Below are positions 31,983-40,900 of a stretch of 64,000 nucleotides of DNA, one piece after another. The stretch lies in NCBI RefSeq assembly GCF_054482525.1, contig NZ_CM137006.1; one strand, written 5' to 3'. A program made the translations under genes and the position numbers. Position 1 is the first letter of the stretch; every line of letters begins with the position of its first letter. The notes under the pieces were generated by a model. The model had not been told where the DNA came from, did no database searches, and saw nothing but the letters and a program-made list of their open reading frames with translations.

Positions 31983-33056
31983 ATGATGAAGCGCAATATT
32001 CTGGCAGTGATCGTCCCTGCTCTGTTAGTAGCAGGTACTGCAAACGCTGCAGAAATCTATAACAAAGATGGCAACAAAGTAGATCTGTACGGTAAAGCTG
32101 TCGGTCTGCATTATTTTTCTAAAGACAATGGTGTAAACAGTTACGGCGGAAACGGCGACAAAACTTATGCCCGTCTTGGTTTTAAAGGGGAAACACAAAT
32201 CAATTCCGATCTGACCGGCTACGGTCAGTGGGAATATAACTTCCAGGGTAACAACTCTGAAGGCGCTGATGCCCAGAAAGGTAACAAAACTCGTCTGGCA
32301 TTCGCAGGTCTGAAATTCGCTGATGCGGGTTCTATCGACTACGGTCGTAACTACGGTGTGGTTTACGACGCACTGGGTTACACCGATATGCTGCCTGAGT
32401 TTGGCGGTGACACGGCATACAGCGATGACTTCTTCGTTGGTCGTGTAGGCGGCGTTGCTACCTATCGTAACTCCAACTTCTTCGGTCTGGTTGACGGCCT
32501 GAACTTTGCCGTTCAGTACCTGGGCAAAAACGAACGTGCTGGTATTCCTGAGCGTTCCAACGGCGACGGCGTCGGTGGCTCTATCAGCTACGAATTCGAA
32601 GGCTTTGGTATCGTAGGTGCTTACGGTGCAGCAGACCGTACCGACGCCCAGGAAGCCGAATTCCGCGGTCAGGGTAAAAAAGCTGAACAGTGGGCAACTG
32701 GTCTGAAGTATGACGCGAACAACATCTACCTGGCAGCGAACTACGGTGAAACCCGTAACGCTACGCCAATTGAAGGCGGCTTCGCCAACAAAACGCAAGA
32801 CGTTCTGTTAGTTGCGCAATACCAGTTCGATTTCGGTCTGCGTCCGTCCATCGCTTACACCAAATCTAAAGCGAAAGACGTAGAAGGTATCGGTGATGTT
32901 GATCTGGTGAACTACTTTGAAGTGGGCGCAACCTACTACTTCAACAAAAACATGTCCACCTATGTTGACTACATCATCAACCAGATCGATTCTGACAACA
33001 AACTGGGCGTAGGTTCTGACGACACCGTTGCAGTGGGTATCGTTTACCAGTTCTAA
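31983..33056 (+). CDS. ompF: Outer-membrane porin OmpF (357 aa, loop-variant allele)
   Basis: ORF track; signal peptide [22 protein letters not shown], mature N-terminus [11 protein letters not shown]-terminal VYQF; differs from remembered K-12 OmpF (362 aa) mainly in predicted external loops. Confidence 0.95.
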
Positions 33057-33240: not shown

Positions 33241-34431
33241 ATGTTTGAGAACATTACCGCCGCTCCTGCCGACCCGATTCTGGGCCTGGCCGATCTGTTT
33301 CGTGCCGATGAACGTCCCGGCAAAATTAACCTCGGGATTGGTGTCTATAAAGATGAGACGGGCAAAACCCCGGTACTGACCAGCGTGAAAAAGGCTGAAC
33401 AGTATCTGCTCGAAAATGAAACCACCAAAAATTACCTCGGCATTGACGGCATCCCTGAATTTGGTCGCTGCACTCAGGAACTGCTGTTTGGTAAAGGTAG
33501 CACCCTGATCAATGACAAACGTGCTCGCACGGCACAGACTCCGGGTGGCACTGGCGCACTACGCGTGGCTGCCGATTTCCTGGCAAAAAATACCAGCGTT
33601 AAGCGTGTGTGGGTGAGCAACCCAAGCTGGCCGAACCATAAGAGCGTCTTTAACTCTGCAGGTCTGGAAGTTCGTGAATACGCTTATTATGATGCGGAAA
33701 ATCACACCCTTGACTTCGATGCACTGATTAACAGCCTGAACGAAGCTCAGGCTGGCGACGTAGTGCTGTTCCATGGCTGCTGCCATAACCCAACCGGTAT
33801 CGACCCTACGCTGGAACAATGGCAGACACTGGCACAACTTTCCGTTGAGAAAGGCTGGTTACCGCTGTTTGACTTCGCTTACCAGGGGTTTGCCCGTGGT
33901 CTGGAAGAAGATGCTGAAGGACTGCGCGCTTTCGCGGCTATGCATAAAGAGCTGATTGTTGCCAGTTCCTACTCTAAAAACTTTGGCCTGTACAACGAGC
34001 GTGTTGGCGCTTGTACTCTGGTTGCTGCTGACAGTGAGACCGTTGATCGCGCATTCAGCCAAATGAAAGCGGCGATTCGCGCTAACTACTCTAACCCACC
34101 AGCACACGGCGCTTCTGTTGTTGCCACCATCCTGAGCAACGATGCGTTACGTGCGATTTGGGAACAAGAGCTGACTGATATGCGCCAGCGTATTCAGCGT
34201 ATGCGTCAGTTGTTCGTCAATACGCTACAGGAAAAAGGCGCAAACCGCGACTTCAGCTTTATCATCAAACAGAACGGCATGTTCTCCTTCAGTGGCCTGA
34301 CAAAAGAGCAAGTGCTGCGTCTGCGCGAAGAGTTTGGCGTGTATGCTGTTGCTTCTGGTCGCGTAAACGTGGCCGGGATGACACCAGATAATATGGCTCC
34401 GCTGTGCGAAGCGATTGTGGCAGTGCTGTAA
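33241..34431 (+). CDS. aspC: Aspartate aminotransferase AspC
   Basis: ORF track, 396 aa; PLP fold-type I aminotransferase; starts [16 protein letters not shown]. Confidence 0.95.
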
Positions 34432-34446
34432 GCGTTAAAAACAATG

Positions 34447-34472
34447 AAGCCCGCTGAAAAGCGGGCTTTTTT
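34447..34472. terminator. Bidirectional terminator between convergent aspC and gloC
   Basis: Stem GAAGCCCGCT/AGCGGGCTT with GAAA loop, T-run on + and A-run (T-run on minus strand) flanks. Confidence 0.7.
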
Positions 34473-34480
34473 ATGCGCCT

Positions 34481-35128
34481 TTACCAGACGGGCATTTCGT
34501 CTTGCAGGAAGGGATTATGCAGGCGCTCATAACCAAGTGTGGATAATGGTCCGTGACCCGGAATAAATGTCACGTCATCCCCCAGTGGCAGCAACTTATC
34601 TTTGATTGAAGAAATCAGTTGATTATGATCGCCACGCGGGAAGTCACTGCGCCCTACTCCGCCTTTGAAAATAACGTCGCCAGAAATCAGCAGCTTTGCC
34701 CGATCATCAAAAAACACGACATGACCCGGCGTATGCCCAGGGCAATGTAACACCTGTAAAGCCACATTCCCTATGCTGATGGTATCGCCTTCGTTCAGCC
34801 AACGATCTGGCGTCAGCGGCTGGCACTCTTCCAGACCAAACATACGACTTTGCGCAGGCAAGCCTTGCAGCCAGAACTCATCTTCTTTTTCCGGGCCAAA
34901 AACCGGCACGCCGTAATGTTGCGCCAGTTCCGCCGCTGCGCCAACGTGGTCCAGATGACCATGCGTCAGCAGGATCTGCATCAGTGTCAGGCCGCTGGCG
35001 TCAACTTCCTGTTTGATTTTTTCCGCATCGCCGCCAGGATCGACCAGTGCGGCCAGACGGGTTTGTTCACACCAGATCAATGAACAGTTCTGGGAGAATG
35101 CGGTGACCGGAATAATACGATAGTTCAT
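34481..35128 (-). CDS. gloC: Metallo-beta-lactamase-fold hydroxyacylglutathione hydrolase GloC (YcbL)
   Basis: ORF track, 215 aa; HGHLDHVG metal-binding motif. Confidence 0.9.
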
Positions 35129-35154
35129 ACTGCCCCTGTTTCGTTAAGCGATTG

Positions 35155-35703
35155 CTACCAGTGCCGTGCTGGCCCGGTATCAATATGCACAAAGTTACTA
35201 CGTGGGTAATATCCTACACCACCTGCGCGCATAGATAACGCGGCTTTGCGAATATTGCTTAACGCGATACCTTCAATATGGAAATCCATCGCCTGCCCTT
35301 TCGTGTGATAGCTTTTCTTCGCTACTCCACGGCTGCGGGCGCGTAGTTCATTGTTGGTATCAATGGAACGATAACCGGAAATGAGTTGCACCGGTTTGCG
35401 GGTACCTAATAACCCTTGCAGGCGATACAACTGATCGAACAATCCTGGGTCGATGGACTTTATTTTGTTCGCGCGGTAATCGCGGAAAAAATGGTTAAGT
35501 TTTGCCAATTCTTCCTGAATATAGCCTCTGCCATCGAAAAACTCCGCTTTGATTGACTCTCCGGTATGAAGATTATTGAGTGTCAAAATGCGCGGGCGTG
35601 GGGTAGAGAGTGTTGCAAACGCAGGGGTCGGCAGGATGGCGGCACCGAGTGCAACGCCACCAAGCGCCAGCAGTTTGCGGCGATTAGCGTCGAATTTGTC
35701 CAT
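35155..35703 (-). CDS. mepK: Peptidoglycan L,D-endopeptidase MepK (YcbK), Tat-exported M15-family peptidase
   Basis: ORF-track 35155..35712 trimmed to MDKFDANRRKLLALGG (twin-arginine signal). Confidence 0.85.
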   Translation of the reverse strand: MDKFDANRRKLLALGGVALGAAILPTPAFATLSTPRPRILTLNNLHTGESIKAEFFDGRGYIQEELAKLNHFFRDYRANKIKSIDPGLFDQLYRLQGLLGTRKPVQLISGYRSIDTNNELRARSRGVAKKSYHTKGQAMDFHIEGIALSNIRKAALSMRAGGVGYYPRSNFVHIDTGPARHW

Positions 35704-35883
35704 GATAATCAAGTCTACAGGTCAATGTTATCGTTTATATGCACTTCTGGCGCACAAGAGGCACCTTAACCGTCAGTAAAGCTGACGTCAAGATGACTCA
35801 ACCCCAGCAGTGACGGGGGCTGCAGAGAATCGCCCCCGATCATGCTAATTATTACGACAACTGATTTCCCCGAACTGCTTCAT

Positions 35884-37731
35884 TTACCTGATTAATTGTT
35901 CCGCTTTCGATACGATTTGCGAGCTGGATCGCGCAGGCAGATCATAATTGTAAATATCTGTACGATACTGGGTACGACCATCTGCACCAACAAAGGCAGT
36001 CAGGTAGTAGAGATTCACCGGAATCGACTGCCGAATATTGACGTAACGCGTATCGCCCTGCTTCAGCGCATCAGAAATACGTTTGTCATTCCATCCTGCA
36101 TCCTGCAACAGCATATTCGCCAGATCGGAAGCTTTATTCACTCGTACACAGCCTGAGCTCAATGCGCGTGTATCACGCTTGAACAGATTGTGGTTCGGCG
36201 TGTCATGCAAATAAATGGCCTCTGAACTCGGCATATTGAATTTATAGCGCCCCAGCGAGTTCCGTGGGCCTGGAGCCTGCTGGAAGCGAAACGGTAAATT
36301 CGAGGCCGTGATTGTAGACCAGTCAACCTGCCATGGGTCAATCGCTTCTCTGCTGTTCCAGCCGCGCATCACCGTATAGCCATGGCTTTCGAGATATCCC
36401 GGATCGTTGCGCACTTTCGGCAGAATATCTTTACGTGCCAGAGTTGGTGGTACGTTCCACGGCGGGTTTACCACTACGTTGTTAAGTGCACTGCTCATCA
36501 TCGGCGTTTTGCGATCGGGGCGACCGACAATGACTCGCGAATCCAGCACCTGATTGCCGTTCTGATAGTAGACCAGCGAATAGGCCGGAATGTTAACCAT
36601 GATCCCGGTAGAAAGCTCTGTTGGCAGCAAGCGCAATCGCTGGATGTTGAGTGCCAACACGCCAGCACGCTGGGCGGGCGTTACGTTTAACCAGTCACGC
36701 GTTGCCGGGCCAATAGCGCCATCTGCTCCCAATCCTTGCCATGCCTGAAAACGTTTAACGGCTTCCACCAGTTCATTATCGTAGGCGGCACGAACGGCAG
36801 GCGCAGGTTTACTACGAGACGTCGTTTGCTTGTCCATCGGCTTAGTTTCTGCTGTTTCAACAGTAACAGCGGATGGGCTGACTACCGTGTCAGTTGGCGT
36901 GTCATCGCCAGGTAGAGTAATTTTCGGCCCCCCGTCCAACATGCCTGTGCGTTGCAATATTTCGCGCAACGCCGGTACGTCGTTACTCCACTGCCCTGGG
37001 CGCAACGTTGCTTTACCGGTCAGTTGAGGCCACGGTTTGGTGTCACTGAGTAAGGCCAGTAACGATTCATGCATCGCCGCATATTGCGGATGCTGCGGTG
37101 CCAGTCCTGCAACAAACGTCGGCAATTGACCTTTATCCAGCGCCAGCTGCCATTGGTTAATCACCGAAAGCGGCGGCGTTGCAAGCGCATAAGGTTTACT
37201 GCTATATAGCCAGCGAGTGCCTTTGACCGGAATATTTGCAATGAAATGGAGATAGCCCATCATCGCATCAGAGAGCACGACGTCGCGTGCCATCCCGTTA
37301 ACACCAGGATCGGTCAGTAACTCTACCCATTTATTAAACTGCGGCTGGAAACCGGCAATCGCCACCTCGGCCAGCTGTTGCTGGAAGGCTTTAACAGCAT
37401 CACGGTTTTCCCACATGGGTTGCATATCGCGTGCGGCATACAACAGTTGAAGCTGGTTAAGATAAACCGGCTTGTAACCTGCGGGTAATTGAGATTCGAT
37501 TTGCGTGCGGGCTTTTTCTGCCGCACCTTCAGGCAATGGCTGGATCCCCGCCATTATTGCCGTGGCTTGCGCCTGCGGCAGTGCCTCGCCCTGTTCACTG
37601 ACAGCCACCGGGCTGTCGCCAGGGATTACTTCAGGCTCATCGGCCTGCGCATTGAACAGTGGAGCGAATGTTACGGCCAGGCACAAACTGATTGCCGACA
37701 GCCGACGACCACACATCATATTAAGCAACAT
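35884..37731 (-). CDS. ldtD: L,D-transpeptidase LdtD (YcbB)
   Basis: ORF track, 615 aa; YkuD-type catalytic motif [23 protein letters not shown]. Confidence 0.9.
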
Positions 37732-37991
37732 CCCTTGCCCCCTGTTTTTATCATACTCTGAATAGCCAGGCTGTTATTTTACGACTTGCCTGTACAACGC
37801 CAATACTCACGAAAGTATGACGAGCAAGCCTGTTACTCATCAGGCTTATCTTCAGTATATAAACGCCGATACGTTTTTACATAACCTAATGTAAAGAAGT
37901 TTAAAGAAAAGCGCGCCGTAATGTGCCACTTTTTTAGTGCAGAAACGGAGTTTTCGGAAAAAGAAAAGGCGGCATTGCTGCCGCCTTCATT

Positions 37992-40900
37992 TTAACTCGC
38001 CTGGGAAGGCGCTTCGTCACTTCCTGGAAGCGTTTCAGGGAGTTGCGGCGCAAATCCTCGCAGGCCGACGACGTGAACGTGTTCGGTATTCTGGAAGACT
38101 TTACGTACCAGTTTATAGGTGGTGCCTTTTTCCGGACTGATATTTTCCGGCGCTGCGATGATGAGCTGCATTTGCAAACGTTCACACAATTCAAACAGCG
38201 TGGCGATAGAACGGGCGTCCAGTCGCGCGGCTTCATCGAGGAACAGCAGGCGGCAAGGAGAGATATCTTTACCGCGCAGGCGGCGAGATTCATCTTCCCA
38301 GCTTTGTACCACCATCACCAGAATCGACATACCGGTACCAATCGCCTCACCGGTCGACAGAGCGCCAGATTCTGCGCGCAGCCAGCCATCGGAACCACGG
38401 TTAACCTCAACTTCCATTTCCAGATAGTTGCGGTAATCCAGCAGTTCTTCGCCAATGGTCTGCGGCGTGCGCTGCCCCATATCAATCTGCGGATTAAGAC
38501 GCTGATACAATTTCGCCAGTGCTTCTGAGAAGGTCAGACGGTTGCTGTTAAACAGATCCTGATGCTGCTCGTGCTGTTCAGAGAGCACATCCAGCAGCAT
38601 GGCGTGCGTTTCACGCACGTTCACGTTGAGGCGCACGCTGTTCACCTGACCAAACGATACGTTCTGCAACCCCTGGTTGAGCATACGGATACGGTTCTGC
38701 TCGCGCTGAATGGTTTTGCGAATGATGTTCGCCACGCTGCGGGAACTGATCGCCAGTTTCTGTTCACGGGAGGTTAATTCTTCGGTCAGACGGCTAAGTT
38801 CGATCTCCATCTGTTCGATAGCTTCCACCGGATCATCGGTACGAATAATATCCTGACGAATACGTTCACGCAGATGCTGATAAACCGCCACGAAGAACTG
38901 AATTTTACGTTCCGGACGTTTTGGATCTTCCGACATCCGCAGCACGTCGCGCAGATGTTCGTTATCCGCCACCGCCAGACGCAGCGCACCTAACGCCTTA
39001 TCCGACATGGAACGCAAATCATCAGCGGAGAGATAAGCCAGCTCACGACGGTGTAAGCGGCGTTCAACGCCGTTATCTTTCACCATGCGCATGACTGCAC
39101 ACCAGCCCGCTTTCGCGGTCACTACCTGCTCGCGCATCTCAAAGTAATCACGCTCCAGCTTGCGCAGTTTGCGGGTCAGGTTGTCCATCTCCGCTTCGCA
39201 GAATGTAAGCGCTTTTTCCAGTTGATTGCGTCGTGAACGGTTATTGCTCAGTTGCGCGTGCAGCTCGTCACGGCGAATACGTGCCCGCTCTTCTGCCCCG
39301 CTATCAGCACGCACGCCGATATCCTGCAATTCACGTTGCAGATCGTTAAGTAGCTCTTTTTTGGTGTCATACGAACTTTTCAGCGAAGCCAGCACCTGGT
39401 TGTACTGACTCAACTGCGCTGCGTGTCCGCGCAACGCTTCACGCGCGCGGGTACGCTCCGCTTCCGCCTGTTCCAGACGTTCACGCAGTTTTTCGTTGAG
39501 ATCGCTGTTACCGCTAAGCATTTCTGCCGAGTCAGAGTAGCTAAAGTGCGCACGACGCTGCACCACTTCCGTCAGGGCAAACGCCTGCTGACGGGCATCG
39601 CGCTGCATCTGCTGAGAGTACGCGTACTCTTCTTTTAACTGTTCGAACTGTTCCGGGTCGCTCTGCAATACCGAAACGATCGGTTCCAGTTTCGCCAGTT
39701 GATTACCGAACTGCTGAACAAAACGCGCGGCTTCCTGGGCTTCATCCAGACGTTCGCGGATTTCATCGACGCGATCTGCCAGGCTGTCATCAGCCAACAG
39801 GTTGAGACGCGGCAGAATGCGGTTCAGCGCCGTAACGCCCTCTTTCGCCTGCTCAAATTGAATACGCTGCTGCTGGTTATCATTTTCATGATTACTCAGC
39901 GCCCGCTCCAGTTCGACGCGACGGCTGTTCAGTTGACGGATTTCTGCTTCCGGGTCAGACTCAAACGCCACCGCCAGATGACTACCGATAAAGCGGCTGA
40001 ACGCCTGATGCAGACGCTGGGTTTTCTGTACATCAAAGGAGAGCGTGGCGAAGCGTTCGGAAAGCACTTCACGCTCGGCATGGAGGCTTTCAATACGGCT
40101 TTCACGCGCAGCACGACCAAACAGCGGCACTTCCGGGAAACGTGAATAACGCCACTGACGATCGGCGATTTTCACCACCACCGCTTTTTCCAGCTCATCA
40201 ACGCTGAACACGCTGTCATCGAATGACTGCGGATCCCCTTCGATCAGATAGAGATCTTCCGGGCAATCGGTCAAGCCTTCCAGGTGTTCGGTTACCTGTG
40301 ACAGATCTGGCACCACGATGGCGTGGCGGGACGGGCCATACAGCGCCGAGAAGTACGGCGCATCTTCCAGGCTAACGTCGTCATAAATTTCGGACAGCAG
40401 CACGCCGCCAAAACGCTCCGCCAGCGCATTCAAACGCTGGTCTTCAGAACCACCTGGCTGGCTTAAACGTTCGATCTCTTCATCGACGGCGTTTTTGCGC
40501 GCGCCTACTTCATCGCGTTCAACAATGGCTTCGCGCTCACGCTCCAGCAACTGTTGCAGATATTCGGTGACATCCTGGCTAGAGGAGAACTCTTCGCCGC
40601 ACTGTTCGCTCAACTGGTTGAGGCTGTTTTGCGCAGCCAGCCAAACCGGCGCACGCTGCATCAAACTCTGAATGCGAGACTGCAGCTGTTCCTGCTCCTG
40701 ACGCAGTGCCATACGCTCTTCGCGGGCGTTAGACACGCTATCGGAAAGAGAGGCAATGCGCGCTTCCAGCTCCTGATGCAGAGCTTCCAGTTCATCAATA
40801 TCAAAATTCTTGCCCTGACGTTTGCAGAAATCTGCCAGCAGGCGTTCGGCTTCTTGCTGCTCGCGCAGACGCTGTTCCAGTTCGCTTAAGCGCATCCGCA

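Follow-up and report, generated by a model that had tools for sequence, protein, structure and literature searches.

Our comparative analysis of the ldtD–mepK–gloC locus indicates that its three genes are probably expressed as two transcription units, ldtD alone and mepK–gloC, with a leaky boundary between them. This reading draws on the conserved elements of the ldtD–mepK spacer, on the spacing of the genes across genera and on the separate stress regulons to which the two units have been assigned in published work.

Genes and boundaries of the locus

In what follows, the window is the whole 64,000-nucleotide stretch of DNA that was analysed. On its minus strand ldtD is followed by a 180-nt gap, mepK, a further 26 nt and gloC, and the three genes are flanked by two terminator-like hairpins:

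37965..37988, minus strand: strong terminator-like hairpin with a T-run at the mukB end; 10-bp stem, 6 GC pairs, tail TCTTTTTCCG (terminator scan)
35884..37731, minus strand: ldtD (ycbB), L,D-transpeptidase of 615 aa (ORF 37731..35884)
35704..35883, minus strand: ldtD–mepK spacer, 180 nt (sequence)
35155..35703, minus strand: mepK (ycbK), M15/DUF882 peptidoglycan L,D-endopeptidase of 182 aa (annotated ATG start, 35703..35155)
34481..35128, minus strand: gloC (ycbL), metallo-beta-lactamase-fold glyoxalase II (Lactamase_B match, RefSeq annotation)
34447..34468, minus strand: terminator-like hairpin 3' of gloC, common to the convergent aspC (terminator scan)

This is the standard E. coli ldtD–mepK–gloC locus, whose genes, functions and adjacency are already documented. 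The DNA at 34400–38100 is 100% identical to that of E. coli PCN033, where the three genes are annotated as ldtD, mepK and gloC, and the locus is present in 5,421 of 5,426 complete E. coli genomes. Order, strand and the 180-nt gap are the same in K-12 (ldtD, ycbB, b0925; mepK, ycbK, b0926; gloC, ycbL, b0927), and the differences from that strain are at strain level only: the MepK sequence is 100% identical, LdtD differs at 3 of 615 residues, GloC at 3 of 215 and the spacer at 5 of 211 aligned positions. The sequence-only reading of this DNA had described ldtD and mepK as adjacent tandem genes on one strand about 180 bp apart, and both the open reading frames and the RefSeq annotation agree, the separation being exactly 180 nt (35704–35883). 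That reading did not give the strand of the two genes, which is minus, and it overlooked gloC, which lies 26 nt downstream and is the tight partner of mepK, rather than ldtD. Across 76 Enterobacteriaceae loci the mepK–gloC gap has a median of 27 nt, compared with a median of 180 nt (range 167–259 nt) for ldtD–mepK, and gloC is probably co-transcribed with mepK. The hairpin at the mukB end sets mukFEB transcription apart from ldtD. The hairpin at the gloC end is the end of the mepK–gloC unit, and the Term-seq 3' end of the convergent aspC adjoins it at K-12 position 984479 (Adams et al. 2021 supplements, PMC7815308).

The LdtD product matches YkuD (PF03734; 92.6 bits against a cut-off of 23.4), Scaffold (PF20142) and PG_binding_1 (PF01471), and it scores 1201 bits against the NCBIfam equivalog NF007891 (cut-off 425). 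The YkuD catalytic cysteine motif SSGCVRV that the earlier reading had pointed out is indeed retained within the YkuD domain, at residues 525–531 with Cys528, and fits the active-site SxGCxR motif. The YcbB structure 6NTW matches residues 31–615. Together with the homologues 7KGN, 7KGM and 7AJ9, the YcbB/LdtD crystal structures give a full-length match with the same scaffold, PG-binding and YkuD architecture and no difference of note from the LdtD of the window. Formation of mDAP3–mDAP3 (3-3) cross-links by LdtD is described by Voedts et al. and in a review (PMC12729407), and the protein would act here as a Sec-exported YkuD transpeptidase that makes these links.

MepK matches Peptidase_M15_2/DUF882 (PF05951) at 206 bits and scores 274.9 bits with NF053624, the NCBIfam equivalog model for this protein (cut-off 185). 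It carries an H-x6-D...H motif (H133-TKGQAM-D140, with H173 in FVHID), and we take H133, D140 and H173 to be the predicted zinc-binding residues of an M15/LAS-type fold; a solved structure of a close MepK relative was looked for and not found. The twin-arginine signal RRKLLALGG noted previously begins at residue 8 within MDKFDANRRKLLALGGVALGAAILPTPAFA, its RR being residues 8–9, and MepK is among the predicted Tat substrates of strain PCN033 (PMC7549933). Published work describes MepK as an LD-specific endopeptidase that is needed when LdtD carries cross-linking (Voedts et al.; PMC12729407), in agreement with the earlier reading that LdtD makes and MepK cleaves 3-3 cross-links. In this scheme MepK would be a Tat-exported zinc M15 endopeptidase that cuts the links made by LdtD. 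Fusion of the two activities in one protein was considered and rejected, a YkuD domain being found in none of 10 long MepK homologues (412–730 aa).

Conserved elements of the ldtD–mepK spacer

Four elements follow one another between the ldtD stop codon and the mepK start:

35845..35883, minus strand: conserved block directly 3' of the ldtD stop (ATGAAGnAGTTC ... TTGTCGTAA), identified by conservation in the alignment
35805..35847, minus strand: GC-rich stem-loop 3' of ldtD, with core arms 35838–35832 and 35820–35814 and flanks that lengthen the stem
35763..35791, minus strand: conserved sigma-70-like promoter candidate for mepK–gloC, with -35 TTGACG (35791–35786), a 17-nt spacer and -10 TAAGGT (35768–35763)
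35701..35719, minus strand: leader and initiation region of mepK, almost invariant, TGTAGAC(T/C)TGATTATCATG (alignments)

The RNA of the spacer is more structured than shuffled sequence (35690–35900 folds at -73.4 kcal/mol, z = -4.06), and the stem-loop core is formed by the inverted repeat CGGGGGC-11 nt-GCCCCCG at 35814–35838. A hairpin of -12 to -27 kcal/mol lies at the equivalent place in all 76 loci. RNAalifold on a MAFFT alignment of the hairpins returned no structure, the stems lying in shifted registers, and the stated structure was counted instead: 71% of cells are paired compared with 33–47% in slid controls, and there are 93 double-change cells against 43 ± 7 in shuffles, with none of 500 shuffles as high. 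Compensatory changes preserve the stem across roughly 25 enterobacterial genera.

The element resembles Rho-independent terminators in being a GC-rich stem-loop that immediately follows a stop codon, and its flanks are A-rich on the 5' side and T-rich on the 3' side in many genera; a T-run of at least 3 follows the stem in 47 of 75 species, the E. coli value being 1. It differs from such terminators in E. coli, Salmonella and some Citrobacter, where a degenerate tail (TCACTGCTG or TCGTTGCTG) stands in place of the T-run and the two flanks are base-paired. The tail in the window is TCACTGCTG, without a T-run, and the U-tract that directly follows the stem of an intrinsic terminator is absent. 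The E. coli stem-loop has lost the T-run seen in many other genera, and its likely role is weak termination or no more than stabilisation of the 3' end. Rfam gave no match to the gap at E <= 1, its weak sub-threshold hits being confined to the flanking terminators. The Term-seq tables contain no 3' end at the gap hairpin, but none at the strong mukB terminator either, so this silence says little.

Downstream of the stem-loop, TTGACN-N16-18-TANNNT occurs in 76 of 76 Enterobacteriaceae loci, with the -10 at a median of 59 nt from the mepK ATG. The CTTGAC of the candidate -35 is invariant in a 26-genus alignment, and Yersinia and Erwinia have a promoter-like block of the form TTGAC(G/T)-17-TATGGT. 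A generic promoter scan of the gap did not call TTGACG-17-TAAGGT because the -10 matches at 3 of 6 positions only. From this placement a mepK–gloC transcript would start near 35755, equivalent to about 983023 in K-12, with a leader of about 52 nt. Pairing of SdsR with the mepK leader, suggested by PMC10954441, was rejected: its duplex energy is matched by 40% of shuffles, and the longest Watson–Crick match, 6 nt, is at chance level.

For 35704–35883, where the sequence-only reading had proposed promoter and terminator prediction as a check, the gap holds a conserved promoter-like element and a stem-loop, but the terminator scan found no terminator-like site in it, while calling the hairpins at the mukB and gloC ends. 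A complete terminator in the gap had been named as an observation that would speak against linking the two genes. The scan does not predict termination at the E. coli hairpin, which has no U-tract, and read-through could therefore be substantial.

In the window the block after the ldtD stop can be read as a mini-ORF of 12 codons, MKQFGEISCRNN, with its ATG directly adjoining the ldtD TAA; a C at 35877, where K-12 has T, converts the two-codon ATG-AAG-TAG of K-12 into this longer frame. Its length ranges from 2 to 45 codons across species, with MK-stop or MQ-stop in 29 of 76, K-12 included, and no ATG in 10. A conserved peptide was rejected in view of this variable length and the K-12 stop at codon 3, which place the conservation at the nucleotide level. 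A long-range pairing of TAATCAGGT at the ldtD stop with AC(C/T)TGATTA before the mepK ATG is 84% paired, compared with 19–44% in slid controls. It shows weak covariation, with 7 double-change cells, a number that 32 of 500 shuffles attain, and the Buttiauxella/Cedecea group has free variation on the ldtD side.

Two transcription units or one

Three further features bear on how the genes are transcribed:

37891..37905, plus strand: CpxR-box-like direct repeat GTAAAGAAGTTTAAA, a single mismatch away from GTAAA-N5-GTAAA and some 160 nt upstream of the start codon of ldtD
37750..37803, minus strand: two overlapping sigma-70-like matches upstream of ldtD (TTGGCG-16-TAAAAT and ATAACA-16-TATGAT, each 9/12; consensus matches only)
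35653..35657, minus strand: counterpart of K-12 983121–983125, where published Term-seq 3' ends fall within mepK at +46 to +50 relative to its start codon

A review lists ldtD as a member of the Cpx regulon (PMC12729407), and the candidate CpxR box upstream of the gene fits this membership, as one of 10 sites with at most one mismatch on both strands of the 64-kb window. Genes ycbK and ycbL, by contrast, are given as one sigma-E-induced unit without ldtD, at 9.7-fold and 6.6-fold (PMC2731931, Bury-Moné et al. 2009), in a table that also credits Rhodius et al. and Kabir et al. with reporting them, and in Salmonella ycbK has been assigned a sigma-E ChIP-seq peak (PMC4577112). Co-regulation of ldtD and mepK was thus not found in these published data. 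The same two closely spaced genes are present here, bounded downstream by the aspC-shared terminator. A canonical sigma-E promoter was not found, and the clearly conserved promoter-like element is of sigma-70 type. A scan for the consensus GGAACTT-16-TCAAA (GGAACTT, 15–19 nt, TCAAA/TCTAA/TCTGA) up to 450 nt upstream of mepK gave no convincing or strong conserved site in the window and 13 other loci, the best match in the window being 8/12. By position, the block at 35845..35883 offers the best candidate for a sigma-E-type promoter, albeit a weak one, and weak matches recur there.

DirectRNA-seq counts rise from 118 reads over the 800 nt before mepK +48 to 218 over the 800 nt after it (PMC7815308 supplement), and we count this approximately twofold higher downstream coverage against a promoter-free gap. 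Nor does the gap look promoter-free by its sequence, as a single operon would have it, the TTGACG-17-TAAGGT element being present in 76 of 76 loci. Term-seq positions were moved onto the window by their offset from the mepK ATG, and a Rho termination region lies at K-12 983123 (Rho score 2.01, p = 6.3e-5; Adams et al. 2021 supplements, PMC7815308).

Whether ldtD and mepK are co-transcribed had been left open by the sequence-only reading, and the stem-loop, the promoter-like element and the separate published regulons now lean towards mostly not. We favour a model in which ldtD would form a unit of its own, transcribed under the Cpx control described in the literature from a separate promoter that lies beyond the mukB terminator, and ending at, or stabilised by, the conserved GC-rich stem-loop 40–80 nt past its stop codon. 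The second unit, mepK–gloC, would start at the conserved TTGACG-17-TAAGGT about 60 nt upstream of the mepK ATG, be additionally sigma-E-induced according to the literature, and end at the aspC-shared terminator. A portion of the ldtD transcripts probably continues into mepK, so that the units would be leaky rather than fully insulated. Gene identities, the layout and conservation of the gap and the covariation of the stem are results of this analysis; the enzyme activities, the Cpx and sigma-E regulation and the RNA coverage are taken from published work; promoter activity, start site and the extent of termination in the gap are what we infer from these elements.

Much of the same evidence can be arranged differently. 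One possibility, unlikely on balance, is a single ldtD–mepK–gloC operon with an internal promoter, in which the E. coli stem-loop would not be a terminator but an element for stabilising or processing the RNA, and Cpx-driven transcription would regularly enter mepK, coupling 3-3 synthesis and cleavage. The shared strand and the lack of a predicted terminator in the gap are consistent with this, as is the 35-nt gap of one mukB-linked lineage; loss of the T-run in E. coli, Salmonella and some Citrobacter, with the extended stem kept by compensatory changes, suggests selection for structure and not termination, and transcripts that cross the gap are implied by a Rho-dependent region of modest score (2.0) located at the junction and in early mepK. 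Set against a single operon are the sigma-E table that has ycbK–ycbL without ldtD (PMC2731931), the doubling of RNA coverage across the junction (PMC7815308), the conservation in 76 of 76 loci of a 180-nt gap with an invariant promoter block, and the T-run that follows the stem in most genera. It is also conceivable, though we consider it rather unlikely, that the block after the ldtD stop (35883–35851) is the sigma-E promoter of mepK–gloC, with TGTCGTAA as its -10-like element and the stem-loop serving as a 5' stabiliser of that transcript instead of as the ldtD 3' end. The block is conserved beyond coding needs, in certain genera (Atlantibacter, GTCAAAA; Yersinia, GGTCTGAA) its GTC-containing element looks like a good sigma-E -10, the equivalent position is among the top three weak sigma-E matches in 5 of 13 loci scanned, and both the ycbK–ycbL induction (PMC2731931) and the ChIP peak at ycbK (PMC4577112) would be accounted for. 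The -35, however, is without the AAC core (AGCAGTT in the window; AGTAGTT in K-12, 4/7), total scores are no better than background hits, and a transcript from the block would terminate within about 45 nt in those genera where a T-run follows the stem.

A further and more speculative reading, to which we give little credence, treats the spacer as a conserved module of regulation, one that fixes how much 3-3 cross-linking is made relative to how much is cleaved. What was ancestrally the ldtD terminator would then work as a leaky or translation-sensitive attenuator, its U-tract having disappeared from Escherichia, Salmonella and some Citrobacter and its stem having been preserved through compensatory change. 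An attenuator would fit the mini-ORF abutting the ldtD stop, the complementarity of a 9-nt ldtD-stop sequence to the sequence just before the mepK ATG, and the premature 3' end at mepK +46. If it were true, transcription and translation of ldtD under Cpx induction would adjust the output of MepK in addition to the promoter that mepK itself has.

Conservation of the gene pair and its significance

Conservation of the ldtD–mepK pairing across genera, which the earlier reading had suggested checking, holds in Enterobacteriaceae, in other Enterobacterales and in one Vibrionaceae genome. The mukB–ldtD–mepK–gloC–aspC block is whole in 76 of 76 informative Enterobacteriaceae loci and likewise in Yersinia and Erwinia. 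In Xenorhabdus an inserted phosphatase gene parts mukB from ldtD, not ldtD from mepK. In Veronia (Vibrionaceae) an LdtD-type gene (Scaffold, PG_binding, YkuD) lies directly upstream of mepK, mukB is not nearby and gloC is displaced by 3 kb. Distant MepK homologues without an ldtD neighbour occur in a Campylobacterales MAG, in an aceF–lpd-linked lineage and on other metagenome contigs. Two lineages speak to the number of transcription units in opposite senses: one mukB-linked lineage, with its ldtD–mepK gap of 35 nt and a mepK that overlaps gloC, looks like a three-gene operon, and in an uncultured lineage mepK–gloC stands without ldtD beside aceF–lpd.

The adjacency could also be inherited synteny of no selective meaning, ldtD having lain between mukB and the mepK–gloC operon in the Enterobacterales ancestor, an explanation that strikes us as improbable. 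The whole block is common to the 76 Enterobacteriaceae loci, Yersinia and Erwinia, and this uniformity within Enterobacterales means that conservation is not separable from common descent; the more distant MepK homologues are without an ldtD neighbour, and ldtD and mepK answer to different stress regulons (PMC12729407; PMC2731931). Shared descent alone, on the other hand, sits less easily with Veronia, which keeps an LdtD-type gene beside mepK despite changed surroundings, with the Xenorhabdus insertion that spares the adjacency, and with the direct biochemical link of LdtD and MepK (Voedts et al.; PMC12729407).

In summary, our work adds a comparative map of the ldtD–mepK spacer that suggests separate promoters and a leaky boundary, a detail of annotation and not a discovery. 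The 3-3 cross-links made by LdtD allow E. coli to bypass penicillin-binding proteins, conferring beta-lactam resistance, and help it to survive outer-membrane assembly defects, and MepK is the hydrolase that keeps a 3-3 cross-linked wall expandable. Whether ldtD and mepK are expressed jointly or separately therefore bears on the balance between making and cutting these links under envelope stress.

Identity and functions of the paired genes

RefSeq annotation places mukB, ldtD, mepK and gloC in that order on one strand, followed by the convergent aspC. The segment 34400-38100 is 100% identical to E. coli strain PCN033, and the ldtD-mepK-gloC locus occurs in 5,421 of 5,426 complete E. coli genomes. 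The two genes at issue are:

37731..35884, minus strand: ldtD, 615 aa, with Pfam YkuD, Scaffold and PG_binding_1 domains
35703..35155, minus strand: mepK, 182 aa, the same protein as K-12 MepK (100%)

The sequence-only reading had described tandem genes about 180 bp apart, one encoding a YkuD-type transpeptidase with an SSGCVRV cysteine motif and the other a protein with a twin-arginine signal; because the gene calls, motifs and spacing all match, every detail of that observation is confirmed. The ldtD product scores 1201 bits against the NCBIfam L,D-transpeptidase equivalog (cut-off 425), aligns with the YcbB crystal structure 6NTW across residues 31-615 and carries Cys528 within SSGCVRV. The mepK product scores 274.9 bits against the MepK equivalog (cut-off 185), with RR at residues 8-9 and both H133-x6-D140 and H173 found. 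The gap between the two genes is exactly 180 nt, and that between mepK and gloC is 26 nt.

The roles proposed earlier agree with Voedts et al. and the review PMC12729407, in which LdtD (YcbB) forms 3-3 cross-links, so that penicillin-binding proteins can be bypassed, and MepK, which cleaves these links, is an LD-specific endopeptidase required during that bypass. Predicted Tat substrate lists include MepK (YcbK), one of them for PCN033 itself (PMC7549933). Neither these functions nor the Tat prediction is new.

A separate observation concerns the ompF allele at 31983-33056 (plus strand), which encodes 357 aa with 92.6% identity to K-12 OmpF and 7 gap positions. PCN033 is otherwise the best match, but its ompF copy carries a pseudogene annotation and an internal stop, and the two translations differ.

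Anatomy of the ldtD-mepK spacer

Our comparison set comprised 80 Enterobacteriaceae loci, one per species from about 25 genera, 76 of them with enough flank. Across these 76 the ldtD-mepK gap spans 167-259 nt (median 180), and for mepK-gloC the median gap is 27 nt. Conservation is greater for MepK than for LdtD: median identity to the window protein is 92% and 75%, respectively. The gap RNA folds into more structure than shuffled sequence (z = -4.06), and an Rfam search of the gap matched no family. Alignment of the gaps revealed four conserved elements:

35883-35851, minus strand: block adjoining the ldtD stop, ATGAAGnAGTTC...TTGTCGTAA
35838-35832 and 35820-35814 (core arms; extended 35847-35805), minus strand: stem-loop, also supported by covariation
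35791-35763, minus strand: promoter-like element, invariant CTTGAC(G), 17 nt, then TAAGGT/TAATGT/TATGGT
TGTAGAC(C/T)TGATTATCATG, minus strand: nearly invariant mepK leader

The promoter-like element is present in 76/76 loci, its -10 lying a median of 59 nt from the mepK ATG, and Yersinia and Erwinia gaps also carry it. Two Salmonella loci (L019 and L028, S. enterica subsp. diarizonae and arizonae) have gaps of 258-259 nt versus about 180, the extra ~80 nt sitting between the promoter-like block and the conserved leader.

The stem-loop varies in sequence by genus while its pairing is kept: counted against a stated structure, 71% of cells are paired versus 33-47% in slid controls, and double-change cells number 93 versus 43 +/- 7 after shuffling, a value reached in 0/500 shuffles. 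A T-run of at least 3 directly follows the stem in 47/75 species, and in about a dozen a TTTTT or GTTTT tail, often with an A-rich 5' flank, has the look of an intrinsic terminator. The tail reads TCACTGCTG in E. coli and TCGTTGCTG in Salmonella and some Citrobacter, and in all of these the altered stem flanks still pair. Given this degenerate tail and retained pairing, the E. coli element is a conserved structure with a poor U-tract, which predicts that it terminates weakly at best or serves to stabilise the 3' end.

A longer-range pairing is also predicted: TAATCAGGT (35886-35894), overlapping the ldtD stop, complements ACTTGATTA (35704-35712) directly before the mepK ATG, where most genera read ACCTGATTA. 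The minimum-energy fold of the gap pairs these minus-strand segments, and 84% of cells are paired over 55 sequences, but covariation is weak, so that selection for the pairing is at most a possibility. A mini-ORF (35845-35883, minus strand) also begins in the post-ldtD block, its ATG adjoining the ldtD stop (TAA-ATG). It has 12 codons in the window (MKQFGEISCRNN) and only ATG-AAG-TAG in K-12, owing to one C/T SNP at window 35877; over 76 species its length ranges from 2 to 45 codons, with the ATG missing in 10. There are three mentions of ycbK in PMC8708949, which deals with regulatory 'minigenes'.

Probable transcription units across the spacer

Co-transcription had been left as a question for promoter and terminator prediction in the gap. 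Alignment showed the conserved promoter-like element there. A consensus scan for hairpins with T-runs called no terminator-like hairpin in the gap and did call such hairpins at the mukB end (37988..37965) and after gloC (34468..34447). We consider it probable that ldtD is transcribed by itself and that mepK-gloC forms a second unit with a conserved promoter of its own, the boundary between the two being leaky in E. coli. The main rival is a three-gene ldtD-mepK-gloC operon that combines an internal promoter with substantial read-through. It is unlikely but keeps some weight, given the missing U-tract of the E. coli hairpin and a mukB-linked lineage in which just 35 nt separate ldtD and mepK.

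Published data bear on both genes. In Bury-Moné et al. (PMC2731931), 'ycbK ycbL' (b0926-7) appears as a single unit induced by sigma-E (9.7-fold and 6.6-fold); the table credits Rhodius et al. and Kabir et al. with reporting it too and does not include ldtD. Salmonella sigma-E ChIP-seq lists a peak at ycbK (PMC4577112), and a PhoB study places mepK and gloC on a single transcription path. The published intragenic PhoB site in gloC (TGTCAGGCCGCTGTCATC, K-12 983795) has no exact match in the window. Cpx regulon membership is described for ldtD (PMC12729407), and a CpxR-box-like repeat, GTAAAGAAGTTTAAA at 37891-37905 (plus strand), is found some 160 nt ahead of the ldtD start with one mismatch to GTAAA-N5-GTAAA. 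A second GTAAA overlaps this candidate repeat, within a TTTAC-N10-GTAAA palindrome.

In K-12, Adams et al. 2021 (PMC7815308) called a modest Rho-dependent region at 983123 (score 2.01, p = 6.3e-5), with 118 DirectRNA-seq reads in the 800 nt upstream and 218 in the 800 nt downstream. Their Term-seq 3' ends fall at mepK +46 to +50 (window 35657-35653, minus strand) and may mark mepK transcripts that end early or are attenuated. The Term-seq lists include no 3' end at the gap hairpin; because they also lack one at the strong mukB terminator, this absence says little.

Within 450 nt upstream of mepK, no convincing match to the sigma-E consensus GGAACTT-16-TCAAA was found. The block after the ldtD stop is the best positional candidate for such a promoter, its GTC element being GTCAAAA in Atlantibacter and GGTCTGAA in Yersinia; against it stand a poor -35 and a position upstream of the stem-loop.

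Reach of the pairing

The order mukB-ldtD-mepK-gloC is kept in 76/76 Enterobacteriaceae loci, and ldtD lies immediately upstream of mepK in Yersinia ruckeri, Erwinia and Xenorhabdus, the last with an extra gene between mukB and ldtD and none between ldtD and mepK. The mukB-linked lineage with the 35-nt gap also has ldtD directly before mepK, and Veronia pacifica (Vibrionaceae) keeps the pair with mukB not nearby and gloC 3 kb off. Pairing despite such changed flanks indicates that the ldtD-mepK link reaches somewhat beyond simple block synteny. It was absent from a Campylobacterales MAG and several metagenome contigs.

Pyruvate dehydrogenase E2 and E3 are encoded by aceF-lpd. In two loci of an uncultured lineage (L091 and L097, Logan assemblies), mepK-gloC lies directly downstream of aceF-lpd with no ldtD, showing that mepK and gloC can relocate together without ldtD. 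Ten long MepK homologues were searched for a fused transpeptidase domain and none was fused. Many distant MepK homologues reach 576-730 aa (P0148, P0158, P0162, P0165, P0173, P0179, P0192, P0205 and P0226); their DUF882 domain is N-terminal, and a C-terminal extension of ~400-530 aa matches nothing in Pfam.

The ldtD-mepK finding holds and was known before; what our work contributes is the comparative annotation of the spacer between these genes. The tighter pair is mepK-gloC.
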